Assembly: GCF_018977255.1 (NCBI RefSeq)
Contig: NW_024704742.1
Location: 72,232,001 to 72,296,000 of the forward strand
DNA: 64,000 bases
Direction of reading: 5' to 3'
Origin: Callorhinchus milii
Lineage: Eukaryota
How positions within the stretch are numbered: position 1 is the first letter of the stretch; every line of letters begins with the position of its first letter. This document shows, one piece after another, positions 23,401 through 64,000 of this stretch. The position numbers and the translations under genes were made by a program. The notes beneath the pieces were generated by a model. That model was not told the origin of the DNA. It ran no database searches and was given only the letters and a program-made list of their open reading frames with translations.

Positions 23401-26400
23401 GATTGGCAAAAGCCAAGGTTTACATAGCCTAGAATGTGTGTTGGGGTAACTGCTGTTTAATAATAAATAATAATCCTTGTATTTGCGCTTTTCAATCTTC
23501 TAGGTGTCTCAAAGCACTTCACAGTATACTGTAAAGTGAATTGACTGTATATTTATGGGCGAAACGTGGCAGCCAATTGCGCACAGCAGTGTCCCACAAG
23601 CAGTCGTGGATTGAGTGACCAAATTCTTATTATTTTTTGTTCTTGAGGGAATATTATCAGGCATGTGGAAACTTGTCCAAGGTTTCGCCCTGCCGGGAAT
23701 CAAACCCAGATCTCTTGCTTGCAAGGCGTGTGCTGTAACCACTGGGCTACAGTTAATCAACTAAAACCACATAGCTTCATTGATATCGCTGTCTGGCAAG
23801 CTTTTCCACTGCTTGTCCAGCTTGGACCATCCTACCTGTTAGGGCTTTGAGTTGCAGGGTTAACAGAGCTGATTGGGATGACTGTTTGTCCCCAAAGACT
23901 GGTCCATCCTTCCAGGTCCGGCCGATGAGCCAGGCTGGCTGTGCTGTCATCAGCAGTGCCCTGGAATACTGTGGACCCACCTGGCTCAGGAATTGGACTA
24001 CCCAGACCACCAGAGGGCTGGCTCGATTCCGACATTCCATTGCCAGTTCAGCTCCAAGAAGACCCCGTTTACCTCATTAGAGGTATTCATTACCTCCAAC
24101 AAAGTGCAGGTTTGAACCTCGCTAGATGGATGGTAGGTACCAGGACTTGCAAATGTGCTGAAGGAAACCCTTCTGCTGCACGGACATAAGCACGGAACCA
24201 GGAAGGAGAACTGGGGAAGCAGTTCAGTAAGAATCATGTGAACAGGATCAGCACCACTACCCTGGCTCATCGGCAGGACTCAAGATGCAGACTGGCAGCA
24301 GGGATTCCTCACACTCAGTTTCTGTTAATTCTGCATTTCCCTTCAAACAAATCTCACGCGGTCTCTCAGCAGCCCTGGCTCAGATATAGGCGTTTTTCTC
24401 GTGCAGACGCTCCTTGATCAGCCCACCACACGTAGGCTGAGCAGAAGACGCAAGCACTCAGCTCCCATTATCCAGCTGAGGTAAGTACCCCTGCGCCAAT
24501 CATCACTGCCAGAAACACAAGGTACACAGAACAGCTCAGCTCTCACCACACTGGGATCAGAGACATCACTAGTTACTGAACAAACAAAGTGACTGAAATA
24601 TTCTTGAGGGATTATTATCAGGGAAGTGGAATAAGGAAACTTGCCCAAGGTTTTGTCCTGCCAGGAATCAAACCCGGCAAGAGACCCGCCCCCACCCCAC
24701 CCCGTCCTATTACAACACACAGTAACACCCGCCACCCACCTCCCACCCACCGTCTTACTGCAATCAGAGGATCTGGATTTAATCATTAGCAATTACCACA
24801 GAATCATGCCCCTCCCATGTACTGAAGATTTCATTAATGAGAGACTTTACAGAAGCTTTCTCCATCCAATAATTACCAATATCAGTTGAAGTTTCTGTTG
24901 TGTCCTGTAAGTCACCACTCGCCTCTAAAAGGGCTACATCTTTCCTAAAAAAGGCAGAGAAAAAGGAAATATTAGATATGCTCTTTTAGCCCCAACCTAA
25001 AACAAGCAGTTTCCTCAAGCCATCTTGGCACTGGTCATCATTACCCTGTGTAAGTGTTGAGTGCTGATCTGCTGATGAGTTCCCCTCCCTCACTCCTATC
25101 ATTGTTTACAGTTTGATACCATTTAGGCCTGTAGGGCTGAGAATTCCACTAGGCAAGGAAACCAATAGAATTAGCAAAGGAATGGGTGGAGACTTATGTG
25201 GAGGGTAAACATTAGCAAGGACTAATTATACCGAATGGCCTGTTTCCATGCTGACAGAATGTACAGAGTCCCTGCCCCACATCCATTTGGAGTCTGTGCT
25301 AAAAGTTAACGCCGGTGGCACGTGCACTACATGGTGAAAGTGGTGACAGATTCAAGTTCAGCTCCTGAGCCTCCAATCTCAGCAATAATGCTCAGAAGAA
25401 ACATGGAGCAAAGAACATGTAAGAAAGGGGTGTCAGAAAAATATGGATGGATATCTGCCATCAGTTCTCTTGCTGATTGCAGCATTTGTCCACTTGAGGC
25501 CACATAATAAGCCTTGCATTTGATATAGTGCCTTATCACATCTTCGAGACATCTCAAAGCGTTTCACAGAATATACTGTAATGTGAATTGACTATATTTT
25601 GAGGGTGAAATATTTTGTGGGTCAAATCTTCTATCCGCGGAGATGCTGGAGCAGCGGTCCAGCTGCTCCATGATCGCCTCTCCTCCACCTTCAACTCCCT
25701 CGTCCCCCTGAAATCCAGGACCATATCCAAACCCACCCGATCCCCCTGGTACAACAACCATCTCCACTGCCTAAAAACCCAAACCCACTGCTTAAGCACG
25801 GATGGCGGAAAACTGGCCTGATAGTTCACCGCCAACTGTGGCTCGAACATCTCCACAGTTACCGCCGTTCTTTGACAAGTGCAAAAACGGCCCTCTACTC
25901 CAACATCATCTTGGAGGCTAAAAGCCCTAAAATCCTTTTTTCCCCACCACCCACTACCTCCTCCGTGCTCCCCCCACAGGCCTCCTCAATCTTCATATTA
26001 TCCAATGCCAAGTGCAAGTGGACTTCTTTTCATCTAAAATACACAACATCCGCCAGGCAGCCTCATCCACCTGCCTCTTGTCACCCACCATCATGCCCTC
26101 TCTGTCCCCTCACCCTCCCCATCATCAGCTCCTACCATGACCCCCATCCTACATTCCTTCCTCCCCATCTCTCCCTCCTCCCTCTCACCCACCATCACCT
26201 CAATGAAACCAACCACCTGCTGCCTTGACCCCCTCCCCACCAACTTGCTGGTTACACAGCTCTCCCTCCTCTGCCCACTACTGGCTGATGTCATCAACCA
26301 GCCCCTCTCCTCCGGATCACTCCGTGTCCCCCTTAAAACTGCTGTCATCACCCCCCTCCTCAAAAAACCTTCCCTAGATCCCTCAAACCCCAGCCACTAG

Positions 26401-29400: not shown

Positions 29401-32400
29401 CCAGACCCTGGCCCCACTCCCAACCCCCACACAGACCTCAGACCCTCCCCCCATAGTCCCCACTCCAATGTGCTTCTCCTCCAGCCCCCACCACCATCTT
29501 ATGTGGCGTTCCTCGGGGCTCTGTCCTCAGTCCCCTCCTCTTCAACATCTACACGCTCCCTTTTGGTGATATCATACGCAGATATGGGGTTAACTTCCAC
29601 ATGATTGCGGATGACACCCAACTCTATTTCTCTGCCTCCATCTTCGATTCCAGGACAACTGACAGACATCAAGTCCAGGATGAGAGCTAAGGGCTCCAGT
29701 TTAAGGACAACAAGATTGAGGCCCTCTTGATTGGCTCCTGTCAGCGCCTCCTCACCTCGGGCACTGGCAGCATCACTATTCATGCATGCACACTCCACTT
29801 CACTGAGCCAGTCTGAAACCTTGGCATCTTGTTTGACCGTCACGGCAACTTCTATCCCACATCCGTGCCATGACTCGCTCTGCCTTCCCCATCCCCAACC
29901 TTGCCTGGCCCCATGCCCCAGAGGATAGAGTTAAAAATCCTCATCCTCGCCTTCAAAGCTTCCACGGCCTTGCACCTTCCTATCTCTGTAACCTGCTACC
30001 AGCATATCAACCTGTCCACGCCCTCCGCTCAGCAGGCTCCGGCCTGCCACGTCCCCCGCCCGAACACCCACAATCTGCGTTCGAGCCTTCAGGCTCTCTG
30101 GCCCCACCTTTGGAACTCCATCCGACATTTCCTTCACCATGCTCCCTCCCTTGTCTCCTTCAAGGCACGTCAAGATCCTCCTCTGCGACCGCATCTTCGA
30201 CCACCCTCCTAACTCTACCCTCCCTGCCACCACCGCTCCTAATCCCAACCCCCTGCTTGGGCCCTAAACTCTTGACTGCTTTAATATCTTGGACCTCTTG
30301 ACGTGAAAGGCGCTATACACATGTAATCTGTTGTTTTTGTGCACAAACCCTGCCCGGCTGCTGGAGAGTTGGATAATTTCTGATCGGGTGTCTGATCTAT
30401 GCTGTCGCACCACGTTAGCATTCCACGTTACCCTGCTCCCATGCAAGCAAACACACAACCAGTTGATCTGCGTTTCATTACCTCATTTTTTGAGCGCAAC
30501 AGCTTAATGGAGGTGACTTTCCCGAATGGCTGGGTCAGCTTTAAGACATCTTTCTGTGTGTAGCCATCGGGGGGCAGGTCAGTCAGGTGAACCACACGCC
30601 CGGTCTTCCTCATTGCTTCCTCCTTCAGACAGTGAGCAAAAAACAGAGTTCATTGCTTTCAGGTGCAAGATTACAACAGACAATAATAATAATCCTTGCA
30701 TTTGATATAATAATAATCCTTGCATTTGATATAGCGCTTTTCACGTCTCAAAGCGCTTCACAGAATAGAATGTAAAGTGAATTGACTGTATATTTGTGGG
30801 TGAAACGCGGCAGCCAATTGCGCACAGCAATGTCCCACAAACAGTCGTGGATTGAAAATGACCAATTTATTATTGTTTTGTTTTGGAGGATTATTAGGTG
30901 TGTGGAGTAAGGAAACTTGCCCAAAGTTTCGCCCTCTGCCTGGAACTGAACCCAGGTTCTCGCTTGCAAGGCGAGTGCTCTAACCACTGAGCTACAGGAC
31001 TTCACGATATACCGCCTTATCACATCTTCAAGACGTCTCAAAGCGCTTCACAAAATATACTCTAAATTGAATTGACTGTATATTTTGTGGCGAAACATGG
31101 TAGCCAATTGCGGACAACAGTCCCATAAACTCTTGTGGAGTGAGTGACAAAATTATTATTAATTTTTTTTGAAGGGATTATTACCTCTGGAAAAGTGATT
31201 TTTTTCAATTGTGCACAAAATATGTAAATTTACAAATCATAGCATAGGCCGAATGGTCTCTTTCTGTGCTGTATGATTCTATGACATCCCATGCAGGCCC
31301 ATCCAGCAATGACACACACCACATGACATACAGGCCCAGTAATTACACACACCACATGACATACAGGCCCAGTAATTACACACACCACATGACATACAGG
31401 CCCAGTAATTACACACACCGCATGACACACAGGCCCAGTAATTACACACACCGCATGACACACAGGCCCAGTAATTACACACATTACACATTAATTCTGT
31501 CCCTTCCTTTCTTCATTCCCCACAGAGACACTGACCTGTTGGACACTAGTCTCTTTCTGGGCAGCTTGCTGAGCAGGTTTCTGCACTGAGGCGGCAGCAC
31601 GCACTGGAAGACACGACACAAACAACCATTGAAAGAATGAGTTCTATTTTTGTGTATAAAGAATGTTTTTAAACAGCCATTACATTTAAGGTTGATTTCC
31701 TTTCCCTACTGTACCAAAATGAGAAGAAATGGTTTCCCATGCTACAGTGGTTTCCCAGTCACTCTGCCTCGCCCCCTCCTTAGCCTCCTTCAAGTCCCGC
31801 CTCAAGACCATGCCATCCCCCTTCCTCTCCCTTCCCCCACCAACCCCAGCTCGGGTCTGAAATGCTGTACACTGTCCAGTGCCTTGGGACGTCCTCTCGA
31901 CGTGAAAGGTGCTATACAAATGTAATCTTGTTGTTGTTGTGCTGTGTGCACTGTCTTCATTTGCAAGAAAGCTTACCTTCTTCACAAGCAAGGTCAATCT
32001 ATAGCTAATGGACGTCCTTACCAGCCTACATTAGACTGGAGTTTAATTTCTGAATCATCACATTCATTAATGGAGTAAAACTTGCATAAATCTGATCTGT
32101 ATCAATCGCATAATGGCCCAAGTCTTACATCCACCCAAGTCCCGCTGAATTTCCTATTAAATCCATTTAAGTTTACATGCCCTTATCGTACCGAGTAACT
32201 TGTAACGCCGCTACTGCACTTGCCGGGTCAAAATTTTGTTTCCTGCCCCTACCTCAAACAGAAAATGTGTTACAGCATGAAGCAGCATATTCAGTGCTTC
32301 ATGGGAGGCAATCACAGGAACCTAAGTCCCCACCCGTCATGCGCATTTACTGTCTGCAATTCTGAAGGACCGAGTGCACAGTACAAAACAGTGAACAAGT

Positions 32401-35400
32401 ATGGAAGACAAGGTGTTGACCAGAGATTATGATATCAGGCAATGCAGATACCCCAGCTAAATGCAAATTAGTAACAAGCACCTATCAGGACAAGTACCAA
32501 ATTCTCCAATTTTGCGAGTCAAATCCTAAATTAAAAAGGAAATTTGATTTGAAGCCACAGAATTTGAATGAGGGAGATCAGGCAGAGTGGACTGAGGGTA
32601 TATGTCTGACTTAATGTTTTCTTAAAAAGTGATTGATAATTCAATTACAGTGTTAGTACTGTAGTTCTTTAATAAGAGTTTATATTCTATCAAAACAATT
32701 TGATTTTGAAATCCTTTTGGTTGTGCCATTCATTAGACAGTACATGTTTTCTGCACATGAGGTACAGTACTACGCAGTACTGTATATGGAAAGAGTGGGC
32801 TACCATAGCTTTAATATGCCTAGGTTACACATGGTACAGAAACCTTGCTTTAATGTCACCAGCCAAGACAGTACTTGTCTATTTATGATGTGTAATTCAT
32901 ATAAAATCTGACTTATACATTACTTTACATAAGTGATATTAAATATATGGTCCCATATGACTTATGTGAGGTTTACTGTACTCTACCTTCAGTGCTCTTT
33001 GCTTCACTGGAGGCCGCAGGCCTCGCTGTGTGGCCAGCCACTTTTGAAGACTTCTGGTTTGCAGGCTTCTGGCTTGTATGCTTGGAACTGGATTCCTTCT
33101 GAGGTTTGCGCTTTGGACTGGAGTGGCGTGGGCTTGACTTGGATTGGTGCGGGCTGGAGCGTTTTGGGCTGGCCCTGGACTTATGTGGACTCAAGCGCCG
33201 AGGACTGGCTCTGCACCTATGTGGGCTTGAGTGTCGTGGACTGATCCTGGACCTGTAAGGGCTCAAGCGATGAGGACTGTGTCTGCCTCTGTATGGGCTA
33301 GAACGTCTGGGACTTGATCTCCTTGGGCTCAGACGTCTAGGGCTGCCCCTGTATGGGCTCAGATGTCTGGGACTCCTCGATCTATGAGGGCTAAAACGTC
33401 TCGGGCTCCTTGACCTATGTGGGCTAAAACGCCTGGGGCTCCTTGACCTATGTGGGCTAAAACGTCTAGGGCTCCTTGACCTGTGTGGACTAAAGTGTCT
33501 GGGACTCCTCGATCTATGTGGGCTCAGACGTCTGGGGCTCCGTGATCTGTATGGGCTCATTCGCCTGGGGCTGGACCTGTGTGGACTTCGCCTGGGGCTG
33601 GATCTGTGTGGGCTGAGATGTCTGGAACCGGATCTTCTGGGACTCAAATGCTTTGGACTCATGCGCCCGGAGCCGGAGGACAAGAGGGCTACGTCCGCAG
33701 CAGCAGCCTCTTTCTCTTTTTTCGCCAGATCATCCCTATTGGTAAACAATCAAATACATTTCCTTCAGCTTGGATCACGGTTAAACAGTAAAAGTGAGAA
33801 CGCTTTTGTGCAAGAAATGTATCAATTTAAAAAACACAATACTACTTCAACATCAGGAAAACTATTATATTATTGATCATCACACCCCAGCCCACCGCTT
33901 CCATTCTGTACGTGGTAGGTGGAACTGTATGTGGTAATTGGAATGGGGAAGATGTCTACACAAAATGGGGACTTCCTCTAAAGAGAAGTTTTGAATCAGG
34001 AACCAAACCAGCCATAGCAACCACCTTAGTAACTATCTGAGAGTCAGGTGGAAGTGAGGTTGGAATATAAACTCACAGCACATGTGCGGGAGTGACTGCA
34101 TTGATTGTGTGACTAATCGTGGATGTACGTTTCCATGTTTCCAGCTTTTGGAAACAATACCTCCGTGCTCCACCGGCGATGTACAAGGAGCAGAGAGTGG
34201 ACCCAGGAGTAGTAAAGATGCTACCTAGCCCAATTGTTCTTGTTGCATGGACCAATGCTCCACTCTTGCCCAAAATGGTTACTAAATTACTCAGTGCCAG
34301 AGAATGTTCATCCAGTTTAGAAAACCCACCCTAACCCCAGCCCTGCCTCCAGCTAATTCCCCAATGAGAAAAGTTTGATTTCATAATAAAACTTACTTTG
34401 TTGGAGGAATAGCATCTGGATTCCAATCTGGATATCTGTAAGACAAAACATTTGAATTCATGTGGAGTGACTGAAGCACCCTGCAGTATGGTGTGAGGCA
34501 AACCTGTGAGGCAAACCGCTGATCACTCTTTCAATTATCTACACAACATCTTGGCAACAGCAGTCTTAATCCCTGTGCCCAGATTACTCAATTGTTATAG
34601 AATAACAGTATGTGTACAGTACAGAGCAAGGTCATTTGGTCATAGTGTGTGCTAGCTTCCCTACTGGAGCCATTTACTCATGCCAGTCCCTGGTCTCCTC
34701 CTCCCCTAACCATTTAACATTTCCCTCACTTACATTAATCCATTCCCTTTTAAAAGCTCTTATGGAATCTGTAGTTTAGTGGTTTTGATTCCCAGACAGT
34801 GCGAAATGCTGGGCAAGTTTCCTTACTCCACACACCTCTGTTTACCTAGCAGTAAGTAGGAACCCGGTTGTTAGTCAATTGGTGGATCGCTTTACCGGGG
34901 TAATAATCCTTCAAAAAAAATAATAATTGTCACTCACACTGCTGTGTGCAATTGGCTGCAAAGTATACAATCAATTCAAGTATATTCTGTGAAGCGCTTT
35001 GAGACGTTGCAAAGACGTGATAAGGCGCTATATCAAATGCAAGGATTATTATTAATATTATGGACTCAGCTTCAACTATTCATGGTGAGGAAGATAACTG
35101 AAAATAGTACTGTAAAAATCACACAAAGGAGGGGAATAAACAAGACTGGGCGTGCAGATTTATCTCAAACAATTGAGAGAAAACCAAGGACAAAAGTTAA
35201 GATGTAATTTAGAAAGAAGAATATTGGAGAAAAAGGCAGAACGTTTACAATATTTACTGTAAACTAAGAATTGATCTAATACTTTTCAAAGCTACTTATA
35301 AATATTTTCACAATTGAAATGCATGAAAAAGAAAGCCCCCTCCATTAATAACCCAATGAAATCCAAACTTAAATCCTCACTCTTTGAGCAAAAGCCGGCA

Positions 35401-41400: not shown

Positions 41401-44400
41401 ATCACTAGCGTCATATTTCAAGGCTATCAGAAGGGCCTCCCAAACTGCTGACATGAGACTAGAGAAGTGATCTTTATAAGGTTTCACTTGCTTTATTCTC
41501 ACTCTCACCAAGCAACCATATCCTTAGTGCCCAGCATCATAACGGACCACCTTGCCCGTGAGTGACCTGGCTAAACTGGTCGGAGGACCAGCAGGATACA
41601 ACAAACTGATTTGAATATTTGTTACAATCATCTTTATTGCGATAATAAAGCAAAGGGGAAACTTGAATGTTTATCTAGATTGCAGGACCCTATCGAGTAA
41701 ATGCAGCGCTAAGTTCTTCTCTCTATGATCAAAGGTCTTCAATTAAGGTTGGAACTGAATACTTGTCGAACTAAGACAGAGGCCTCACAGCTAGACAGCT
41801 TTGCAGGCACTCCACAGAAAGACAGCGAGGACTCACAGTAACGACGCCTGTTAAGGAAGAAAATAGAAAAGGCGAACTAGGTAACAAACACTCACCCTCA
41901 TTTGTCTACATTCTATGTTACACAAACTGCACACGTGGGGCAGCCGCCTCGCAGGGACACCATAGTAATCATTCATCAGCCTGGGTGTTGGCAGTCCCTT
42001 CTTCACCACTATGTTTGTCCACTTCATGGTGTGTGCAGAGTTGTCATGCAGAGGCTCGCTTGGGTAATTCGGAGTCGGACGTTTGTAATCATCATTCCAG
42101 GCTCCTTCTCTCACCGTGTCGCGGCCATAGTGCATGTTCGGACTCGCCATGGGTCGGTCTCGATAGTCGTACTGTTGTCCATGTCCGTACTCCACCACAC
42201 TGCTCTGCACCTCTCGCCGGTAGTCTTCGTCTTGTAGCTTGTACGGCTGATCGTAACCGCTAGTTTGTTGCTTGTTCATTTTCCGCATTCTTATCTCCCT
42301 TAAAATGTAGGGCATGTTCTCAGGAGTCAACTTCTCGTCTGGGTAACGGCTAAGTTCTTCTAGATCTTCATTTGAAAGACCGAAATTCGCCAAGATATTG
42401 GAGGCCTTCATCGTGTCGTGAAAACGCTGCACGGCAGATCTTGGGTCTGGGTTCGGCGGGGCCGGTGTGCCAGTGTTCCCATAGCCAGGCCGAAAGCCTC
42501 CCGGTGGAGGATTCTGGTACGACCACTGACCTAAGCCTATATTATTTCCAGGTTGGTTCATCATTCCCATGTTCATTCCACCACCAAAGCTGCCCGGTGA
42601 TTCTGCTGGAGCTCCTATTCCTACGCCTCTTCCTCCTCTTCCGCCTCCCATGAAGGGTCCCTGAGGGGGATTCATGCCAAATTGGTTGGGCGGTGGTCCT
42701 GGGTTCTGGCCGAACGCCCCTCTGGCATTGAACATGGACATGTTGATCTTCACCAGAGCTTGGTTCAGAGACGTGAGTGTTGGGTTGGAGACAGTTGTGG
42801 AGGCGACAGAATTCAGCTGTTGTAGGGCCAGATGGGCTTTTATCTGGGCGAGCTGTAAATTTGCTTGGCCTAATAGAAGCGGACTGGTAATGCCGAGGTT
42901 CAATGAATTCACTGCTGGAGTACAATTTTCCAAGAATAACGCAAAGCTGAAAGTTAAAACACAAATATTAGATTTTTACGTTTGAGGAAGTTTTAGCATA
43001 TCAAGGGTTTTAAAGCCAGTCATCATATATTTACACGTGCCTATTAAAGGAAGCTATTCTGGGTGCAGCAAAACAAACCCAATGAGGACAGCTACATCAA
43101 GGACATCCAAGACATTAGAAAATGTGTGACTGACAAATAGGCATCCAGCAGTAGAATTTTCTGTGTGGCTTTTTGAAACATCTGCATAGTACCTATACAA
43201 AGCTTAAAGTGCATATTGTTTACTCTTGTGTACATTCTACTTTCCAAAAACTTACCAGCATTGGGGTCATCATCTTCCTGGTGGATCCACATAATGTTTT
43301 TTCAACTCTGCCAAACACCAATTGATTTTCCACCTAATTCCATTTTAAACCATCAGCCATTGGCTATACAGAAGGCTTGATCTGAGATCTGCAGCACTAC
43401 ACTAGTGATGTCGGAGAATGATTCAACAGAATCACGGACATGTCCAGCTGCCTATTATTTGGAGTGCAGTCAGATTCGCCTACAGAATAGTTATTAATCT
43501 ACAGTAAATCCTACAAAGCACTCTGAAATGATTCAAGAGATTTGATGAGGCATTATACCAAATGAAAGCATTATTATTCCCATATGTTGCAATCGTTAAA
43601 GGCCCACATAAAGCAAGTTATAGTAAATGTAATTTCAAACATTCAGCATACTGATATCTTCATATCCCTTTCTGCCCAATCAATAGCTTAGCACTAAGAA
43701 ACACTGAAATTTTGCTAAATTCTACATCTTTTAAAGCTAGACTTAAAGGTGTCAGCTTGGCTCAGTTGGTAGCACTCTTGCCTCTGAGTCAGAAAGCTGT
43801 GAGTTCACGGCCCATGTGGGGACTCTGAACTCACCGTGTCTAGGCTGAAACTACAGTGCAGTGCTGGAGTTGTGCTGCATTGCTGGAATAGCAGTCCTTC
43901 AGATAAAAAAGTTAAACCGAGATCCTGTCTTCAGGTTCAGGATGTTAATCAAGATCCCATGGCACTATTCGAAAAAAGGAGGCAGTTTGACACCCTGTTC
44001 TAGCAACAAACCCCCAAATATAATTGGACACTCACCCCATGGCTATTTGTGGAACACTGCTGTGCACAAATTGGATACCATATTCACCTACGAGTACAGT
44101 CGCTCTGCTTCACAGTAAAATCCTATGAGGCATCTTGATGATGTGCATGGATTATTTATAATTTCCACATTTTTGACATGTTGTAGTCCCCGACCCCATG
44201 CCAAGACATTGCTGGTGCACTGTGTGCTGAGTGGTGAGAATCTACCCCAACATCAATAATGAAATGTTTTCTGCTCACCATGTGACCTGGTTTAATGGAA
44301 TCACACAGGCGAAAGGCATGAGGTGGAATTTCAGCTATGCACCTTGAGCTAAAGGTAACTGCAGTTTTAATACAGAGCGTTACATTGCCGTCCTTGAAAA

Positions 44401-53400: not shown

Positions 53401-56400
53401 AATTTAAGCTTATATGTCCTAGTGAATGCTGTGGGAAAGCTGCATTATAGAGGTACATCATTCAGATGTGGCATTAAACCGAGGTCCCTTCTGAAGGATG
53501 TACCTTCATCAAAGAAGCCGTTCCCAGCATGGTATGGGCAATGAAATGACTCACAAACATACAGCCACTCCACTTGACAGTAAATCCTGTGAAGTACTTT
53601 GGACATCCTCCTGATGTGAAAGGCGCTATACCAAATGTAAGAATGAATATTTAGAATTAGCAAGTCGTTTACCTCGTAGCTGTTTGTGGGATATTGTATA
53701 AATTGGTTGCCGTATTCTACTACAAATAATCACTTCACAGACAAAACTCTTATGCACTTTTGAGATGCAATAAAGCCCAATATCAAGTGCAAGAATTATT
53801 TTAAGAACTATAATTGTCATATTGCTACTCCAGCTGATATCAGCAAACACCAAGTGGTGGACATTTTGATGCTTCGTGGTTCAGTTTCACTCATGGCAGT
53901 GTTCTTTCACTTTCTGACCTGATCTATTATCAAATCCCCATGTGTGTTTCTTATTTACAAATTCTACTACTTTCCATTGGCCTTCAATCAGGTATAATCT
54001 GTCTAATGCTCATGCTACCCTTCTCCAATCAATCGATTCATTATTATGATCCTACCCTTTCCAGCCACATCCCTGCCAGAGCTAATGCCACAAATAGTGC
54101 TGCCCTTCTATAATCCTGATCTCTCCACTGGGTTCTACTAGTGCTACCCTTCTCAATACATGCTTCACCAATGTTGGCTTCCCCTATCCCTGTACGCTCT
54201 GCTCTATCTTGGTCATCACAGTTTGAAGAGGCCAGGTTTATCAATGAAGGCCTGTTCCAGTGGTGAATGCTCTGCTGAATCTTGTAATTGTGTCCAGCCA
54301 ACCACTGTTGCCCTCTTCTAACCCCTCATAGTGCCATTATCTTCCCATCTTGTTCACTGAGCAAATGTTGACCTCCTCTGGATCTGGAGATTTGGTCACT
54401 TCTTCAGGTTATATTGCATCTGCTGTAGATGCCAACATTCCATCAAAGCTACCATCCCGGTGCAGTTTCTTCTCATCTCCATCTTGCATCCTCCATGGAT
54501 GTTGGTAACTTCCTGTCCTTTTGGTTTGAGTACTTTCTCCCTGCCCCGGATGACGTGCACCTTACCCAACCACTTGCCATTTTGTAGACATTTTATATGA
54601 AAAAAAACTTGCCACAATATATTTGGTGTTGCCATTCTCCCACCTGCCTGTTCCATTGATTTTCTTTACTGTTTCTTACACTCAGAATGCAATCCTCTCA
54701 AGTGTATCTTCCCGACAGCTCAGTCAAGATGATCTTCTCTACTCACAGCCCCCCGAAATGAAATTAAGACTAAGGCCAGATTAGTCAATGATTTAGTTTA
54801 TCTTCAATACATCAAGCTAATTCTAAAGCAAAGATGCTATTAGAAAAATGCACATTGTATGCATACGAAAACGTTGTATAGTATCCAGTAAGTACAATCC
54901 AAACAATCAACCAACTGTAGTCCCTGAGCTCAGTATCACTTCCATTAATAGATCAACGTATAAAAATGCTATTTTCTGTAACCTTGATTTGTCAATTAAC
55001 TGACTTCAAGTACTCACCTGTACCCGTAGAGGACAGGATTGGCCAGACTTCTATATAACGTCCTTCGTGTAGCCTGTCTATGACAGGAAAATGCACACTA
55101 TTAGGTTGGGAATGGACTGTGCACTAATAGTTATCTTCGTAGGAAATAGTCTACTTGTGACGTATTAAATACCTCTTCAATTAAAATGACTAAGTTTAAA
55201 TCCTAAAATGAAACTCCTGGAACACCTATAAAAACGCAGCCCAGGATTACAAAATTAATCCTTGACGAATCACCTCTCGAAAAGTCCACACCCACTCACA
55301 TCATCTTACAGCTTTGAGCTTTCATTCCAAAAGAGGTCACGTCAGCTGATTATTGTGCTGCACAGTGCATTAGTCTCCTTGCCAGCTGCACTGCGCTACA
55401 TCTCTTTTAACATAAAAGACCGAGCCCCACTGATATTCTTCATGTGCCAGAGACAGTCACACTTTCAAGCATACTGCACAAATAGATGTGGCAATTCAGA
55501 AAACAGACTCGCACATATCACTACTTTAACAGCAAAAAAATTGAAGGTTTGAGAGAATAAGGATATGATTTGGCGTTGAAGATGTCAGCGTTCCACACAG
55601 ACTGGTGCATAATCTCGATCAGATGAGATTCGGGCCAACAGCCTGAAAACCTTCAACATGAAGCAGCATGGTCTTGATTTATATACTCTCTGTATTGATA
55701 CAGGCAAAGAGTACAAAGAGGTAACTTAACTCTTCACGTCGCTAAATATTTCAAAACTGCATTTGTGTCATTCCATTTTTTATTCTTTTATCCACTGATG
55801 GCTTAAAATGATCTCTCAAATGAATATAAACTTCAAGTTTACACCTACTTAACACCCAGACATTTATGACTATCTGTTATCACCAAAAGGGCCAATTTAT
55901 TTCTGTAGCTATTTTTGAACATGCAAGGCATAATAAGGATCACTCCACTAACCTCTGAACCTACCTTTGTAAATCTATTCTCAACACCGGGTCAAACCCT
56001 GACCCAAGCAGCTGATTTGTATAATTTATTGAAGAGACATTTGCACAACTTGTGTCTTATTTATCTCCATTCCAAACACTCACACGCATTTATTTTCAAA
56101 AGTTATTAAACATTTATTTATTCATTAAGGCTCCTGAAAACTATGCACACTTTACTATATCAAGTATAATTAATAGAAAAAATATGCAAAATATTAAAAA
56201 TGCAACTGTCTAGAAAAAATAAAAAAAAAGATACAACTACTCAAGAAATCCATGACATTATGGTCTAAAAGTCTAAGTTCAAAATCAGATGTCATTCAGA
56301 AAGGCACAGAAATCAACACTGTATTTTTACAACGGACATTCAATGACCCTGCCCCCCCCTCCCCCGAAGTATGGTCTTTTGGAAAGCAGCAGATGAGAAG

Positions 56401-59400
56401 AGAACCTTTTTACTTACTTGAAAATTGCTTTGAAGAGCTTCAGTGTGGGATGTCCCAAATCAGAACAGAGTCCATTACTTGACTGCAGGATACATATTTG
56501 TTCTGGCCATGTTTAAGAAGGAATCACTGAATACGGGGACAGCAGTGATTCAACAAAAATAATTCCTCTGAATTTCTGCAGATATTCAACATCCTTGGAA
56601 CAGCAGCAGAACCTCAACAATAGCTTTGAAAATCTAAGTTTTTTTGATTAAAAAATAAATACTGAATAGTCGCTTTGTAATATTTACTCAAAGTCCTACA
56701 CTGTTCAATAGCTGCAGGTGACTATGCTAGGGACAAGGCAAAGCCTTATCTAAACTGAAGAAAAGCTCATAGGATCTTAAATTTTGATGTTGAAGGGTCA
56801 GATATGTGAAGGAAAAAAAGGGAAATGTAGTTTCAATCCAAGGAAAGAAGTAATGTGCAGTCTTATTTCATTATTGAATGCTTACCTTCAACCAAGCCAG
56901 CGACAAAATATCTTCTGAAAAAGGTGGTTAATTGATTCAATGCAGCACCACAACATTGCCTGCACCAAAATATCGGCATTTTCGATGAGAAAAACGAATG
57001 AAAAAACCCCACTAAATTGTAAAACTTAGTCTGGATAATGAATAGAGATTACATCATTGCAGATCAACACACAAACACAAACCTAGGAAAGGAGTTTGCA
57101 ACAAAATGTTCTTGGATGTATTGAAGCATTAAAATGAGGATAATGCAAATATCTTTGCTATTCTGAAAAGAACAAGACCTTCATAAATTATCCTTTCATG
57201 CAGCACACAGAGTGCCTACAATTCCTCACATAATATTCCATTATCAGTTGTAATGGGAGAGAGATGGGGGGAAACGAAAGAACTAAGGAGTGAAAGGAAA
57301 ACCATGAAAACACATTTCATTTTAGATACTTCAACCCACTCTCCTGAATCAGGTTCATAAAGCCTACAGCCTCAGGAAATGGTGTCCAATCTGCTGACAT
57401 GTATCGATCCACAGCTAGTCTGCCTATCCACCTATCTGCATGGTGCCGACTTGGGTTCCAGAAGCATTGGTCTGTGATCAGTTTTATGTAAAATAAATCA
57501 TTGCTTTGATAAAATAACAGTGAGTCAACACCTCACACCAGTGCTCCATTAAATAATGCTGAAGTTAGCAGTATAGATTTTCTTTTGCAAGCCAGTAATT
57601 TTCCATCACAGGATGTTAAACTAAGCAATCTCTAGATTCTAGCACTAGCCTAAGCTTGAAAGGGTAATCAGCAATATTAATTCCTAAACTTAAATGTAAC
57701 CCACCCAGATTTAAAAATCAGACAAAACGCAAATACTGCAGATGTTGGAAATCTGAAACTTAAATCTTCAATTAAATCTGAAACACTCAGCAGGTCAGGT
57801 AGGTTCTATGGAAAGGAAAGTGAGTCAACGTTTCGGGTCCATGACCCTTCCTTTGTCAGAACTGTTTTTCCCGTTTTGTTGCAATCCCCACTTTGTTTTG
57901 CATCATTAACACCTCTTTAAACCATCATCCCCTGACCACTACTCCATTTTCTCCTTTATCTTCCTTGCCCTGCTTCCCCACTTTCTGTTAGTCCTTAAAA
58001 ACCTCTCCCTCCCAACATGCCCCAGTTCTGACGAAGGGTCGAGGGCCCGAAACGTCAACTCACTTTCTTTTTTCCATATAGATGTTGGCTGACCTACTGA
58101 GTGTCCCAGCGAATTCTGTTTTTGTTTAAAATCAGACAAAACTATTCATGGCTGGGTTGAACTTTACAGGAAACAAGTACATAGAATATGTGAAGTTCAG
58201 TGAGTTAATGTAATATGCTTTTCAGCAGTTACTTGAAAACGACTGCTGAATGAAGCAGAAACTCTTGGGTTTCCTCGGTCCTAAATATTGTCATAAACAT
58301 ACACGATGAAGATGTCTTGGAGATGATGTGCAGGAGAATGAGTCAGACACCTCAGAAGAGGAGGGGTGAAAATTAGCAGAAAAAACAGTGCATCAAAGTG
58401 AAATTATATTGTAGTGCTGTTCCCAAGGATACCCATATCCAGAACAGGAACATTGAGGAAAATGCTGATCCTTGTAGTGGAGTTTTAGCTAAGAGGGGAA
58501 AAATACAGATAGCCTCCACTATGTAGATACCTTAAATGACATTTAGGCCTAGATGGTATACATAGTCGAATTAGATAGATATATGTTTGATAGATAGGGG
58601 AGGGGAGAAAAAAACCCACAGAGTGGACCATACATTTCAAGCCAACTCTTCACACACTAACCCTTCCCTTTCTGAAAGTGCTGTAAAAGACTTGCAGCAG
58701 TGAGGGAGATATACAGAAAGCATGTAGAACATGGAGTGCTGCAATGCTGAACAACGTGACGAGACACCATCTGATCCACATTCGTGTGTCCAGATTTTAC
58801 TTAAATTCCAGCAACTGGTTAACTAAAAAGCCTCTGGACTTCAGTTTACTTTACTTAGTTGGTAACTTCACAGTAAAGCTCTTTAACAAGCTCGACTACG
58901 CAAACTCCATGCTTGTCAACTCCTCCCTCCACAAGCTGCAGATCATGCAGAACTTTGCAGCCCATGTCCTCTGCTGCACCAGACTCCGTGACCTTATCAC
59001 CACCATCCTCTCCCAACTCCACTGGTCCCCATCACTCAGAGGATACAGTTCAAGATCCTGGTCCTCACCTTCAAAGCCCTCCACTGCCTTGCTCCTCCGT
59101 ACCTGTGAACTCTAACCCCCTACCATGCCATGACCCGCTCTGCCTTTCCCCACCTCTGCAGCATCACCCAACTCCGCCACTGTCTCACACCGCAGGGCCG
59201 CTGAGACCCTCATACTTGCTTTCATAACATCCAGGCTTAACTATGTAAACTCCCTGCTTGTCGGCCTTCCAAACTCCTCCCTCCATAAGCTGCAGATCAT
59301 CCAGAACTCTGCAGCCCAACCTCTCCTACACCGTGACCCCATCAGTCCCATCCTCACCCGACTCCAATTGCTTCCCATCACAGAGAATACAGTTCAAGAT

Positions 59401-60321
59401 CCTGGTCCTCACCTTCAACCTCCACCATGGTCTTGCTCCCCGCTATTTCTGTGACCTCCTAACCCACTACCATCCTGCTCGCTCCCTCTGCTGAACGGGC
59501 TCTGGTCTGCTTCAAGTCCCCCACCTCGCCCACCCACCATTGACGGGCGGGCCTTCTGCCCCTCTACCCCCACCCTCTGGAACTCCACCCGCAGTCCCTC
59601 CGCCTCGCCCCCTCCCTTTGCCTCCTTCAAGACCCTCGTCTTCGACTGCGCCCACGGTCACCCTCCTACCCCTCCCCGCCTTGCTGATCCCAACCAGCAG
59701 CTCGGGTGCGGATCCCTGACTCTCCAGCGCCTTGGGACGTCCTCGTAAAACATAAGGAGGACACAGCTGTGTAAATGTAATTTGTTGTCGTGTAAACTAA
59801 ATTAATGATGGCGCCCCCGGGGGGGGGGGTGGGGGGGGCAGCGCAGAGCCGGTGCCTTTACAGCTCCTTCCTCAGGGAAACCCCGTCCCCGCACAGGAGA
59901 CCGACTCGAGCACCTGGAAGAGGTGGGGACTGGAAAGAGAGGCCTTCCCATCCTCTCCCTCCCTCCCTGGCCCGGACCTGCCTCGGGCTGAGGCTGTGCA
60001 GGGAGCGGCTGGAGCCGGGGGCGAGGGGCCGGGGATTCGGTCGGGACGAGTCGGGGGAACGCGAAGGCGAGTGGTCCGAGGCCCGGCAGCCATCTTGTGG
60101 AAGGTTCTAGACTCGGGGCGGCGACCCAAGGCGGCTCCGCGGCTGTGACTCTGTCTCCCGGTGTGAAATGGGCGCCGGGGCCGTCCCTACCTGCCGTGCG
60201 GCTCGGTGCCCGCGGGCCGCACCGCTCGGGTCTGTGTCGCTGGCTCTCTGCCCCACTCCCTCGCCACCGCCGCTCCGCGATCCTCTCCCGCCGCTGGTCC
60301 TCCAGTCCGGCCCCGACACAT
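8224..60321 (-). CDS. ZNF638: Multi-exon gene span: zinc finger protein 638 (NP220)-like, MATR3/RBM20/ZNF638 family; 3' end not found in window
   Basis: Spliced translation gives [42 protein letters not shown], then [11 protein letters not shown]...[11 protein letters not shown]...[15 protein letters not shown]...YPDWNP, an RS region and three RRM-like domains. This matches my recollection of ZNF638 domain order (MATR3 has two RRMs, RBM20 one). The upstream boundary depends on the inferred exon 1. Confidence 0.88.
8779..11365 (+). mobile_element. CR1-clade LINE, truncated at both ends and frameshifted: ORF1 esterase tail, APE endonuclease, RT
   Basis: [14 protein letters not shown] (ORF1 end), YLNARSI/ITETW/YRPP/GDFN/SDH (endonuclease), [44 protein letters not shown]. 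Confidence 0.95.
11365..14460 (-). mobile_element. Second CR1-clade LINE, decayed, convergent with the first; carries a SINE insertion
   Basis: ORF-track fragments from 14208..14399 down to 11348..11842 give the same endonuclease-to-RT motif order on the minus strand. Confidence 0.95.
12553..12863 (-). mobile_element. Same SINE family, nested in the minus-strand CR1
   Basis: Splits CR1 [10 protein letters not shown]; head gagtcctgtagctcagtgggtagagc. Confidence 0.9.
14726..14863 (-). CDS. ZNF638: RRM3 first exon ([46 protein letters not shown])
   Basis: Not in the ORF track; translated by hand. ctttatccatgtag|...AAG|gtaatg; 138 nt; VH..NLPEDG motif. Confidence 0.9.
15040..17338 (+). mobile_element. 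Young L2-clade LINE, 5'-truncated, with 595-aa RT ORF (15450..17237) and (TTG)n tail
   Basis: [78 protein letters not shown]. Confidence 0.95.
17885..17932 (-). CDS. ZNF638: 48-nt linker exon ([16 protein letters not shown])
   Basis: ttttctctctccag|...GAA|gtaagt; phase 0-0. Confidence 0.85.
18440..18801 (-). mobile_element. Same SINE family
   Basis: Head, core and tail all present on the minus strand. Confidence 0.85.
18916..19047 (-). CDS. ZNF638: RRM2 second exon ([44 protein letters not shown])
   Basis: tttttgttgacag|...ATG|gtgagg; 132 nt, phase 0-0. Confidence 0.9.
19325..19694 (-). mobile_element. Same SINE family
   Basis: Head gagtcctgcagcgtattggttagagc, core and tail present. Confidence 0.85.
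19806..19946 (-). CDS. ZNF638: RRM2 first exon ([47 protein letters not shown])
   Basis: tttgacttgcag|...CAG|gtgact; 141 nt, phase 0-0; NLP.KGY...LAKPFG motif. Confidence 0.9.
19961..21055 (-). mobile_element. 5'-truncated CR1 LINE with intact 3' UTR and (TTCTTATG)2 tail
   Basis: 309-aa RT C-terminal ORF at 20062..20991, followed by ggctcgaggggccgaatggcctactcctgctcctaattcttatgttcttatg. Confidence 0.95.
22320..23348 (+). mobile_element. L2 LINE 3' fragment
   Basis: [30 protein letters not shown]; tail gccttgggacgtcctcccgacgtgaaaa...ttgttgttg. Confidence 0.9.
23459..23752 (-). mobile_element. Same SINE family, interrupting an older dispersed repeat
   Basis: Head tgtagcccagtggttacagc; tail attatt. 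Confidence 0.85.
25630..27000 (+). mobile_element. L2 LINE fragment, internally deleted
   Basis: [39 protein letters not shown] and FHMYVDDT joined directly to an L2 tail. Confidence 0.85.
27005..27249 (-). mobile_element. Same SINE family, 5' two-thirds
   Basis: Head and core present; tail replaced by the adjacent L2 end. Confidence 0.8.
27272..28384 (+). mobile_element. Young L2 LINE 3' fragment, same family as 15040-17338
   Basis: Near-identical by eye to 16190-17338; (TTG)n tail. Confidence 0.93.
29134..29265 (-). CDS. ZNF638: RRM1 second exon ([44 protein letters not shown])
   Basis: tgtttgctacag|GCT; AFLEM RNP1-like motif; donor CTG|GTAAGG; 132 nt. Confidence 0.9.
29500..30338 (+). 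mobile_element. Decayed L2 LINE 3' fragment
   Basis: tgtggcgttcctcggggctctgtcctc, ttccacatg..gcggatgacacccaactcta, and L2 tail gacgtgaaaggcgctata. Confidence 0.85.
30482..30622 (-). CDS. ZNF638: RRM1 first exon ([47 protein letters not shown])
   Basis: Matrin-type RRM motif RVVHL..LP..GY...PFGKV; 141 nt; donor GAG|GTAATG. The acceptor is an AAG, so the exact start is less sure. Confidence 0.88.
30683..31200 (-). mobile_element. Full SINE (30683-31002, duplicated tail) plus adjacent 3' half of a second copy
   Basis: ataataatccttgcatttgata occurs twice in tandem; head gtcctgtagctcagtggttagagc at ~31000. Confidence 0.88.
31312..31485. repeat. 33-bp minisatellite, about 5 copies (acacaccacatgacatacaggcccagtaattac)
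   Basis: Directly visible; gives 11-aa periodicity in the ORF track. Confidence 0.95.
31536..31603 (-). CDS. ZNF638: 68-nt linker exon ([23 protein letters not shown])
   Basis: gtcttccag|...CAG|gtcagt; phase 1 to 0 exactly bridges the RS exon and the RRM1 exon. Confidence 0.75.
32987..33735 (-). CDS. ZNF638: Arg/Ser/Pro-rich (RS domain) exon
   Basis: ORF-track 32973..33749. Acceptor tttaccaatag| in phase 2; donor AAG|GTAGAG in phase 1 (moderate strength). Confidence 0.85.
34397..34435 (-). CDS. ZNF638: 39-nt exon ([12 protein letters not shown])
   Basis: ttttgtcttacag|...|gtaagt, phase 2-2; YPDWNP is the family motif after the zinc finger. Confidence 0.92.
34768..35055 (+). mobile_element. 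Same SINE family, with internal deletions
   Basis: ggcaagtttccttactccacac core and standard tail. Confidence 0.85.
35381..35442 (-). CDS. ZNF638: 62-nt exon, second half of zinc finger ([20 protein letters not shown])
   Basis: gtttcttgcag|...|gtgagg, phase 0 to 2; supplies the two His ligands after CxxC. Confidence 0.92.
39292..39615 (+). mobile_element. Same SINE family
   Basis: B-box gggtttgattccc, core and tail. Confidence 0.85.
41896..42946 (-). CDS. ZNF638: Large exon: Leu-rich segment, G/P/M-rich low-complexity region, matrin homology domain, first half of matrin-type zinc finger
   Basis: ORF-track 41851..42933. Acceptor ttttaactttcag|CTTTGCG at 42946; donor AGG|GTGAGT after 41896 (phase 0). 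First in-frame ATG within the exon is at 42741 (MSMFNARG). Confidence 0.93.
43750..44155 (+). mobile_element. Older Deu-domain SINE (SacSINE1/AmnSINE-like)
   Basis: Head tggctcagttggtagcactcttgcctctgagtcagaa; Deu-like core gttaaaccgagatcctgtc...aagatcccatggcactattcgaa. Related copies at ~4985-5185 (+), 1100-1340 (-), 51690-51910 (-) and 53390-53645 (+). Family name is from memory. Confidence 0.7.
45018..45362 (-). mobile_element. Same SINE family
   Basis: Full head to tail on the minus strand. Further partial copies at ~24590-24680, 25505-25620, 28505-28685, 38705-38810, 39825-40010, 46520-46690, 50450-50637 and 52735-52900. Confidence 0.85.
51500..51690 (+). mobile_element. Old CR1 3' fragment
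   Basis: TRGHNYK...[16 protein letters not shown]...[14 protein letters not shown]. Short CR1 tails also at ~25170-25265 and 49150-49285. Confidence 0.75.
55018..55077 (-). CDS. ZNF638: Candidate 60-nt symmetric cassette exon ([19 protein letters not shown])
   Basis: Acceptor ttttcctgtcatag|, consensus donor CAG|GTGAGT, stop-free in phase 2-2. No homology evidence. Confidence 0.4.
57729..58127. mobile_element. Penelope-like element remnant with inverted terminal segments and a 15-bp flanking direct repeat
   Basis: 57783-57864 is the imperfect reverse complement of 58023-58104; AAAATCAGACAAAAC at 57714-57728 and 58128-58142; contains a hammerhead core. Confidence 0.75.
58024..58060 (+). ncRNA. 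Minimal type I hammerhead ribozyme motif
   Basis: AGUU (stem I) - CUGACGA - A - GGGUC/GAG/GGCCC (stem II) - GAAACGUC - AACU (stem I'); palindromic ACGU in place of stem III. Confidence 0.75.
58890..59790 (+). mobile_element. Two adjacent decayed L2 3' fragments
   Basis: The LDY.NS...[10 protein letters not shown] segment appears at ~58890 and again at ~59230; tail cagcgccttgggacgtcctc. Confidence 0.8.
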
Positions 60322-60460
60322 CGAGCGCCAAGAGAGGGAACCGCGTGAACCACGCCGTGCGCAGCCAACACAGACGAGCGCCTATCCGGTCCCAATGCCA
60401 GCTCAGAGCTGCTGTCAGTCACTCCCTCGTTGTCACTCAACCCAGAGCCCCGCCCACTCC
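59810..60460 (-). promoter_or_regulatory. CpG island / promoter region of the minus-strand gene
   Basis: Sharp rise in GC and CpG; GC box ccccgccc at 60448-60455; CCAAT at ~60392-60396; YY1-like CAAGATGGCTGC at ~60086-60097 (minus). Confidence 0.8.
60191..60321 (-). CDS. ZNF638: Candidate exon 1, coding part ([43 protein letters not shown], phase 2)
   Basis: Lies in the CpG island. ATG at 60321-60319; donor CAG|GTAGGG after 60191; 131 nt = 43 codons + 2, matching the phase-2 acceptor at 42946. Confidence 0.5.
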
Positions 60461-63400
60461 CACCGTGACTGACTGTCACTCCCCCCACTCACTGTGACTG
60501 ACTGTCACTCCCCCCACTCACTGTGACTGACTGTCACTCCCCCCACTCACTGTGACTGACTGTCACTCCCCCCCACTCCCTCACTGTGACTGACTGTCAC
60601 TCCCCCCCCTCACTGTGACTGACTGTCACTCCCCCCACTCACTGTGACTGACTGTCACTCCCTCCCACTCCCTCACTGTGACTGACTGTCACTCCCTCCC
60701 ACTCCCTCACTGTGACTGACTGTCACTCCCTCCCACTCCCTCACTGTGACTGACTGTCACTCCCCCCACTCACTGTGACTGACTGTCACTCCCTCCCACT
60801 CCCTCACTGTGAATGACTGTCACTCCCCCCACTCACTGTGACTGACTGTCACTCCCTCCCACTCCCTCACTGTGACTGACTGTCACTCCCTCCCACTCCC
60901 TCACTGTGACTGACTGTCACTCCCCCCTCACTGTGACTGACTGTCACTCCCCCACTCACTGTGACTGACTGTCACTCCCCCCACTCACTGTGACTGACTG
61001 TCACTCCCCCCACTCACTGTGACTGACTGTCACTCCCCCACTCACTGTGACTGACTGTCACTCCCCCCACTCACTGTGACTGACTGTCACTCCCTCCCAC
61101 TCCCTCACTGTGACTGACTGTCACTCCCTCCCACTCCCTCACTGTGACTGACTGTCACTCCCTCCCACTCCCTCACTGTGAATGACTGTCACTCCCCCCA
61201 CTCACTGTGACTGACTGTCACTCCCTCCCACTCCCTCACTGTGACTGACTGTCACTCCCTCCCACTCCCTCACTGTGACTGACTGTCACTCCCTCCCACT
61301 CCCTCACTGTGACTGACTGTCACTCCCCCCCCACTCCCTCACTGTGACAGACTGTCACTCCCCCCCCTCACTGTGACTGACTGTCACTCCCCCCACTCCC
61401 TCACTGTGACTGACTGTCACTCCCTCCCACTCCCTCACTGTGACTGACTGTCACTCCTCCCCCTCACTGTGACAGACTGTCACTCCCTCCCACTCCCTCA
61501 CTGTGACTGACTGTCACTCCCCCCCCACTCCCTCACTGTGACTGACTGTCACTCCCCCCCCTCACTGTGACTGACTGTCACTCCCCCCACTCCCTCACTG
61601 TGACTGACTGTCACTCCCTCCCACTCCCTCACTGTGACTGACTGTCACTCCTCCCCCTCACTGTGACAGACTGTCACTCCCTCCCACTCCCTCACTGTGA
61701 CTGACTGTCACTCCCTCCCACTCCCTCACTGTGACTGACTGTCACTCCCTCCCACTCCCTCACTGTGACTGACTGTCACTCCTCCCCCTCACTGTGACTG
61801 ACTGTCACTCCCTCCCACTCCCTCACTGTGACTGACTGTCACTCAACCCACTCACTGTGACTGACTGTCACTCCCTCCCACTCCCTCACTGTGACTGACT
61901 GTCACTCCCTCCCACTCCCTCACTGTGACTGACTGTCACTCAACCCACTCACTGTGACTGACTGTCACTCCCTCCCACTCCCTCACTGTGACTGACTGTC
62001 ACTCAACCCACTCCACCAACAACAAGATTCCATTTATAGAGCGCCTTTCACGTCGGGAGGACGTCCCAAGGCACTCTACAGTTGGGTCAGGAACCGAGCA
62101 GGGGGGAAATGGTCAGGGTGAGGGGAGGGAAGGGAGGGGGCGAGGAGGGGGGAAATGGTCAGGGTGAGGGGAGGGAAGGGAGGGGGCGAGGAGGGGGGAA
62201 ATGGTCAGGGTGAGGGGAGGGAAGGGAGGGAGCGAGGAGGGGGAAGAGAGTCGAGAGGGGAGCTGAAGGCTCGGTCTAAGAGAAAGGTCTTGAGACCGGC
62301 CTTGAAGGAGGAAAGGGAGGAGGCGGCGAAGGCACTGGGGGATGGAGTTCCAGAGCCTGGGGGCTGAGAGGCTGAAGGCCCGGTCACCGATGGTAGGGCG
62401 GTTGGGGCGGGGGATGTGGAGCAGACCGGAGCCAGAGGAACGGAGGGTACGGGCAGGTAGGTAGGGGGATAGTAGGTCGGAGAGGTAGGAGGGAGCGAGG
62501 CTGTGAATGGCCTTGTAGGTGAGGATGAGGATCTTGAATTCGATCCTCTGGGGATGGGGAGCCAGTGGAGGCGAGCGAGGGTGGGAGTGATGTGGTCGCG
62601 GAGTCTGGTGCGGGACAGTACACGAGCTGCAGAGTTCTGAATGACCTGCAGTGTGGAGGGAGGTGCCGGGAAGGCCGGCGAGGAGAGAGTTCCCATAGTC
62701 CAGCCTTGAGGTGATAAAGGCGTGGACCAGGGTTTCAGCCGCGTGAGGGGTGAGGTAGTGCCGTAGTCTGGCGATATTCCGGCGGTGATGGAAGGCGGTG
62801 CCAGTTGTGGCGCGGATATGAGGGAGAAAGGATAGCTCAGGGTCCCCCCCTCACTGTGACTGACTGTCACTCACCCCACTCCCTCTCACTGCGACTAACT
62901 GTTACACACCCCCACTCCGTCACTGTGACAAACTGTAACTCCCTCCCACTCCCTCACTGTGACTGACTGTCACTCCCTCCCACTCCGTCACTATGACTGA
63001 CTGTCACTCCTTCCCAATCACTGTGACTGACTGTCACACCTCCCCTGCTCCATCACTGTAACTGACTGTCACTCCCTCCCATTCCCTCATTGCGACTGTC
63101 TCTCCCCCACCCCCCGACTGACTATCACTCCCCCTCACTCCCTCACTGTGACTGACTGTCACTCTCCCACTCCCTCACTGTGACTCACTGTCACTCCTCC
63201 CCCTCCACTGTAAGTGACTGTCACTCCCTCCCACTCCCTCACTGTGACTGACTGTCACACCCCCCTCACTGTGACTGACTGTAACTCCCCACTCCCTCAC
63301 TGTGACTGACTGTCACACCCCCCCCACTCCGTTCACTGTAACTGACTGCCACTCCCTCCCACTCCCTCACTGTGACTGATTGTCTCTCCCCCCCACTCCG

Positions 63401-63860
63401 ACTGACTGTCACACCCCTCTCACTGTGACTGACTGTCACACCCCCCTCACTGTGACTGACTGTCACACCCCCCTCACTGTGACTGACTGTCACTCCCCCC
63501 CCTCACTGTGACTGACTGTCACACCCCCCTCACTGTGACTGACTGTCACACCCCCCTCACTGTGACTGACTGTCACTCCCCCCCCCACTCCGTCACTGTG
63601 ACTGACTGTCACTCCCCCCCCCACTCCGTCACTGTGACTAACTGCCTCCCCCCCACTCCATCACTATGACTGACTGTCACTCCACTCCTCACTGTGACTG
63701 ACTGTCACTCTCTCCCAACTCTCTCACTCTGCTTGAGTGTCATTCCCCCCCACTCACTGTGACTGACTGTCACACCCTCCCACTCCCTCACTGTGACTGA
63801 CTGTCACTTCCTCCCACTCCTTCACGATGACTGATTGTCTCTCCCCCCACTCCGACTGTC
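60405..63860. repeat. Minisatellite array of ~25-32-bp units (CCCACTCCCTCACTGTGACTGACTGTCACT-like), interrupted by an L2 copy
   Basis: Directly visible; homogeneous at 60465-62010, more degenerate at 62845-63860. Confidence 0.97.
62016..62843 (-). mobile_element. Young L2 LINE 3' fragment inserted in the minisatellite
   Basis: Reverse complement of 16555-17335; tail caacaacaagattccatttata at the left end. Confidence 0.93.
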
Positions 63861-64000
63861 TGCCACAATCTAACTCTGACTCAGGGGTGAGAGTGTTACC
63901 ACCTGAGCCAGTCTGACACCAGATACAATTCACCCCTTGCCTGTGGGTAGGACATTCGTGTGTAAACAGACCAGCATGTTTGCCTGCACTTGACAATAAT

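Follow-up and report, generated by a model that had tools for sequence, protein, structure and literature searches.

Decayed, likely Penelope-like insertion with two head-to-head minimal hammerhead motifs in a probable 5'-UTR intron

A segment of 429 bp (57714-58142) in the window, the whole 64,000-nucleotide stretch of Callorhinchus milii DNA analysed here, consists of two head-to-head shortened repeat ends between exact 15-base direct repeats. This segment is very probably an old, dead Penelope-like insertion, likely within a 5'-UTR intron of a ZNF638-like gene. Neither of its two hammerhead motifs is likely to be active, and both probably decay without selection. The locus is one more copy of an already known arrangement described in 2014, namely dual minimal hammerhead ribozymes on opposite strands and approximately 100-700 bp apart in metazoan Penelope-like elements (Cervera and De la Pena 2014; available parts of PMC4209133). 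Taken alone, a worn copy like this from an abundant repeat matters little. The new point is structural and based on folding predictions: in this head-to-head geometry, the antisense arm would come first on either strand.

The two copies of the flanking repeat (57714-57728 and 58128-58142) match each other exactly, and the repeat extends to 18-19 nt if one A indel is allowed. Only 2 of 1000 shuffles of 57000-58800 contained any exact 15-mer repeat, so that the 15-bp flanking direct repeat described in an earlier sequence-only reading of this DNA is well founded. Between these repeats lie a plus-strand copy of 263 nt (57865-58127) and an inverted minus-strand copy of 136 nt (57864-57729). The plus copy starts with 158 nt of element body (57865-58022), followed by a core-complete minimal type I hammerhead motif (58024-58060) and a downstream arm part without a tail (58061-58127), which can be aligned with both the minus arm and a fragment 14.6 kb into the window. 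The minus copy comprises a 5'-truncated arm (57759-57864), which aligns to 58023-58104 and carries a damaged minimal hammerhead (57823-57863), and a 3' extension of about 30 nt (57729-57758). This extension, likely the Penelope 'tail', has no counterpart in the plus arm, and a rearrangement of 57759-57782 allows its boundary to be placed only approximately. Aligned to each other, the arms reach 76.7% over 86 columns (E 5e-11), with differences at 12 of 78 aligned bases and three gaps. The core-less fragment of the same family, previously placed at about 14565-14620, was recovered at 14563-14617 on the plus strand. It aligns to both arms, with 85% over 47 nt to 58078-58123 (E 2.5e-8) and an E value of 4.5e-5 for the other arm, and no hammerhead core is present upstream of it.

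This anatomy is what the class assignment rests on: the insert likely represents end pieces of a Penelope-like element. An inverted 5'-truncated copy adjoins the plus copy head-to-head (57729-57864 minus, 57865-58127 plus), a tail of approximately 30 nt is present at one end only, and an exact 15-mer target-site duplication flanks the whole. In published descriptions of Penelope-like insertions, a 5'-truncated copy lies inverted next to the other, one end carries a tail of 30-40 bp, and a target-site duplication is present (PMC8557442 and PMC3846280, in the parts available), and our segment resembles the endonuclease-positive insertions of the same sources in its head-to-head truncation, one-end tail and flanking duplication. 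In contrast to the rotifer examples given there, the ORF is gone and the target-site duplication measures 15 bp instead of 8-10 bp. No reverse transcriptase or GIY-YIG frame is attached here, and three frames over the element contain no Pfam family above the cut-off. The earlier description of Penelope-type inverted ends holds for the truncated arms, the one-sided tail and the duplication, with no reverse transcriptase or endonuclease frame joined to them.

The contigs of 4 out of 24 sequencing runs were aligned to 54900-60440 at 85% likeness, a setting that exposed the family state but let repeats crowd the listings; what is said below on letter differences and loose ends applies to the 40 of 156 and the 24 of 2,832 listed, respectively. 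Depth, given here as summed contig depth and not as copy number, rose from 7.5 (run X1) and 7.4 (run X3) to 32,410 and 38,027 in the bin 57675-57859, and the bin 57860-58044 reached 19,386 and 21,462. Contig depth over the element is thus thousands of times that of the background, which shows that the insert belongs to a very abundant repeat family. Because of the depth in the second bin, the 158 nt between the two hammerheads are family sequence and not host spacer. Over 57873-58041, five paralogous pieces differ from the window at 16-23 of 136-164 letters. The tail belongs to the family as well, since family contigs cover position 57730 at a depth of about 1,000 compared to a background of about 7 (X1 and X3). 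Single-copy pieces cross the right junction in three of the four runs, and no empty-site joint is found among the 15 of 344 joints listed. Outside these runs, the tail pattern had no match in viral contigs and metagenome contigs, and the core pattern had none in metagenome contigs and genome contigs. At five positions near the element (58406, 58627, 58711, 58738 and 58761), the window carries letters that disagree with the single-copy contigs of all three runs X1, X3 and X4; these shared differences are alleles or assembly errors.

The same contigs bear on whether the 429-bp hairpin amplifies as a whole, as a non-autonomous unit of its own that resembles a MITE or a retrozyme. Inverted ends and a target-site duplication would be expected of such a unit, and X1, X3 and X4 each contain single contigs with a different head-to-head junction (57839 to 58025), although their short side of 20-24 nt makes them unreliable. 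But no piece listed spans the inversion junction at high depth; the pieces listed begin at 57873-57888 or stop near 57850. The unequal arms, the one-sided tail and the lack of a tandem repeat also argue against this explanation, which we regard as very improbable compared to truncated end pieces of an autonomous element. A separate observation concerns the inversion junction at 57864. The minus arm starts there, 5 nt upstream of the CUGA box, and many family contigs also lose agreement at this position, which suggests that 5' ends of the family preferentially lie here, ahead of the core, and not at the cut site.

The plus-strand motif is complete in its core. Stem I has 4 bp (58024-58027/58057-58060), the CUGACGA box at 58028-58034 is followed by an extra A (58035), and stem II contains 5 bp including one U-G pair (58036-58040/58044-58048). 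The GAAA box (58049-58052) and the letters C-G-U-C (58053-58056) follow, with a predicted cut after 58056. The motif thereby shows the CUGANGA and GAAA boxes, an NUH triplet (GUC, 58054-58056), the G10.1-C11.1 pair of helix II, the extra nucleotide after A9, a helix I of 4-5 bp, and the palindromic positions 15.2-16.2 (ACGU, 58052-58055). On both strands of the 64-kb window, a minimal-hammerhead descriptor had its single match at 58024-58060; of 100 shuffled windows, one contained any match. The minimal type I hammerhead reported for this strand is thus real as a core-complete motif. The covariance-model search proposed along with it did not provide further support: Rfam hammerhead models gave no match at the gathering threshold in the whole window, and for 57600-58250 with E up to 10 only three chance-level matches were obtained, none of them a hammerhead. 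The copy is also 'intact' in its core letters only. It departs from its family at 58042 in loop II and at 58045 in stem II, where approximately 99% of the depth reads otherwise in all four runs (in X1, 21,907 of 22,013 and 21,824 of 22,006, respectively).

Compared to known hammerhead systems, helix II is shorter here (5 bp) than in the minimal hammerhead families of Schistosoma (7-8 bp; available parts of PMC4209133), and the text and supplementary material covered here name no cartilaginous fish among the carriers. Non-LTR retrozymes of animals have been reported in one chondrichthyan genome (10.64898/2026.07.22.740005, in the portion available). They share with our segment a non-coding repeat that is related to Penelope ends and contains a type I hammerhead, but according to the same portion they are head-to-tail tandem units with a hammerhead each, whereas we find an inverted pair without a tandem partner. 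The segment does not have the make-up of a non-LTR retrozyme: there is no tandem array over the element, and the 64 kb contain one core-complete motif. Domesticated intronic hammerheads such as that of RECK (PMC6155905, as far as accessible) likewise place a hammerhead motif in a vertebrate intron. They are canonical with tertiary contacts, whereas the motif described here is minimal, decayed and present in high copy number, with its core-complete copy on what is likely the antisense strand.

The minus-strand motif (57863-57823) has a stem II made up of Watson-Crick pairs throughout. Its box reads CUGACAA and is followed by AAGG twice (57853-57850 and 57849-57846), in agreement with the broken CUGANGA box, caused by a small insertion next to an intact stem II, that had been noticed before. 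The GUU triplet and the U-G closing pair of stem I are further features, absent from that description. The minimal-hammerhead descriptor does not match this copy, which has no CUGANGA box. Family contigs at 57850 lack the four extra letters and read as the plus copy does: 166 (X1), 200 (X3) and 73 (X4) contigs leave the window at this position and continue as 57855-57864, counts to which no denominator belongs. The loose ends there agree at 0.47-0.48, and their consensus turns AT-rich after the first ten letters. The minus copy thus equals the family state plus a perfect tandem duplication of AAGG and, at a CpG, a G>A change. Both are types of mutation that occur commonly. Both lesions lie inside the 5' box, while stem II is still in the family state. 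Reciprocal CpG decay at 58056-58057 and 57826-57827 is only a guess.

From the divergence of the arms, the probability of an intact core was estimated as 0.09-0.27 per copy over nine settings, an estimate that counts the lesion itself among its three gaps. If attention was drawn by an intact copy, its partner should be broken in 73-91% of cases. A lenient calculation by hand, which assumes 6% substitutions over 12 core letters and leaves out indels, gives a probability of about 0.48 for an intact core. Because the lesion has the form of ordinary mutations and a broken partner is the neutral expectation, the minus copy most likely decayed by chance and was not disabled to protect host RNA.

The predicted folds of the element, calculated as equilibrium secondary structures without tertiary contacts or proteins, reach -139.3 kcal/mol on the minus strand (z -5.3) and -129.3 kcal/mol on the plus strand (z -9.4). 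None of 100 shuffles on each strand was equally stable, which supports the earlier suggestion that the arms can form a long hairpin. Selection could have kept this fold-back, an imperfect duplex of roughly 80 bp, as a structure modulating editing or splicing, irrespective of the ribozyme. The stability of the minus-strand hairpin and the single-copy pieces across the right junction would fit such a role. But any inverted insertion folds, and the 12 mismatches and three gaps between the arms are as much as decay predicts, so that we give this possibility hardly any credence, even less than the mobile hairpin unit discussed above.

The hairpin is also predicted to compete with the ribozyme fold. 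In constrained folding, formation of the plus-strand hammerhead costs +5.9 kcal/mol for the motif alone and +44.0 kcal/mol within the element. The corresponding costs for the minus-strand motif are +4.0 kcal/mol alone, +25.0 kcal/mol in a transcript ending at 57815, and +34.8 kcal/mol in the element. When the minus transcript ends at 57830-57823, the emerged sense-arm bases are predicted to be paired with the upstream antisense arm at a mean probability of 0.80-0.82. The arm duplex is therefore predicted to out-compete the ribozyme fold on both strands, including that of the core-complete copy, and the head-to-head geometry would place the antisense arm ahead of the ribozyme whichever strand is transcribed. 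Dimerization does not appear to offer a way out: the predicted lowest-energy dimer of the plus motif is not the helix III dimer, and the descriptor finds no core-complete partner on the same strand in the 64 kb. For minimal hammerheads, cleavage by one copy alone was undetectable, and dimers were only weakly active (PMC4209133, in the parts available). In an anole element, cleavage by the hammerhead depended on the element's protein, and the cut site did not coincide with the end of any RNA-seq read (PMC11167929). The sense copy thus probably does not cut host RNA to much extent. Since a same-strand dimer partner is missing and the antisense arm would come first, there was probably little danger to the host transcript at any time.

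These predictions also bear on the proposal of the sequence-only reading that the sense copy was inactivated to spare the host transcript. It would require that the sense hammerhead could cut, either as a trans dimer or assisted by a Penelope protein, and that an allele with a broken box was favored. The damaged copy does lie on the likely sense strand, both of its lesions are in the catalytic box, and two changes in the 5' box next to a family-state stem II are also what targeted loss would look like. In addition, a 2026 preprint reports that retrozymes are under-represented in introns and exons of two Xenopus species, in an analysis that does not consider orientation in the parts available (10.64898/2026.07.22.740005), and the anole hammerhead cleaves in a protein-dependent way (PMC11167929). 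Against this stand the high expectation of a broken partner, the predicted capture of the emerging sense copy by the arm duplex, the lack of detectable cleavage by lone minimal hammerheads and low activity of dimers cited above, and the fact that a single locus is considered (n = 1). With a lesion of ordinary form, a neutral expectation of a broken partner and a ribozyme predicted to be out-competed, the proposal is not upheld; we consider it very unlikely, though slightly less so than a mobile hairpin unit.

The assignment of the minus strand as the host transcript is based on gene anatomy. A large open frame of 374 aa on this strand (41854-42975), likely part of the host gene, has 'ZN638 protein (Fragment)' as its best Atlas cluster, with a score of 0.90 and a recognition of 1667, which is a weak match, and it contains no Pfam family. 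For 26 frames of the window, Pfam returned two weak matches below the cut-off, none of them informative. RRM-like minus-strand frames were recognized by eye at 30431-30649 and 19707-20036. At the other side of the element, a CpG island at 60001-60500 (GC 0.70; CpG observed/expected 0.89, compared to 0.39 across the window) likely marks the promoter of the host gene, together with its first exon, on the minus strand. A candidate splice donor after 60191 has donor-like letters by eye and falls below the score cut-off of a ranking that uses approximate frequencies and serves to rank candidates only. Because of this layout of minus-strand frames, SNORD94 and CpG island, the element likely lies within a minus-strand 5'-UTR intron of a ZNF638-like gene. 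No splice joint is found among the 15 of 344 joints listed; run X8 has zero cover on the candidate 5' exons, and run X4 covers the region like DNA. These observations do not bear on expression. SNORD94 itself (24375-24512, minus strand; Rfam 129 bits) is located between the two RRM-like exons. In humans, its host gene is PTCD3, and therefore a different host gene may be present here. A 258-aa minus-strand frame at 32976-33749 contains many Ser-Pro-His-Arg-Ser-Arg repeats and no Pfam family, and it likely belongs to the host gene as an RS-like exon.

The history of the insertion could be as follows. The reverse transcriptase and endonuclease of an autonomous element would have copied its 3' end twice in one event, yielding the 263-nt plus copy and the inverted 136-nt copy with its tail and duplicating an A-rich target. 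Point changes, CpG decay and slippage would then have struck both copies, and the minus copy would have happened to gain the AAGG duplication and the G>A change in its CUGANGA box. From either strand, the antisense arm is predicted to emerge before the ribozyme and to pair with it.

The question raised by this locus is whether Penelope minimal hammerheads cleave in vivo. If they cut pre-mRNAs, in trans or aided by protein, solo intronic cores in sense orientation should be lost faster than those in antisense orientation, whereas fold-backs would be tolerated through silencing by the antisense arm. We consider this a long shot, with only marginally better prospects than host sparing at this locus, but such strand-wise purging would be the first in-vivo sign of minimal-hammerhead activity. 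The locus described here provides no evidence for a strand bias, although a weak one may exist across the genome. A genome rich in copies has the power for a strand-wise count of intronic core integrity, comparing solo to fold-back copies. With the antisense arm predicted ahead of the ribozyme on both strands, fold-back copies like the one described here would be least informative for this test. A published comparison of sense and antisense core integrity was not found in a literature survey whose coverage stopped short of subscription journals and bioRxiv supplements.

At the gathering threshold, Rfam gave seven matches in the whole window, SNORD94 and six tRNA-like ones. Seven tRNA-like heads are present (at 1436, 12791, 19621, 23690, 30931, 45288 and 50565), which likely belong to tRNA-derived SINEs. 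LINE-like reverse transcriptase fragments were recognized by eye at 8903-11851, 12582-14235, 15010-17316, 20062-21063, 58850-59800 and 62113-62870; the third of these includes an open frame of 669 aa (15228-17237). Contig depth is very high over 58785-59894. Finally, a tandem array of 29-nt units adjoins the CpG island and occupies 60461-64000, where it was detected to 61000 and similar frames continue to 63669.
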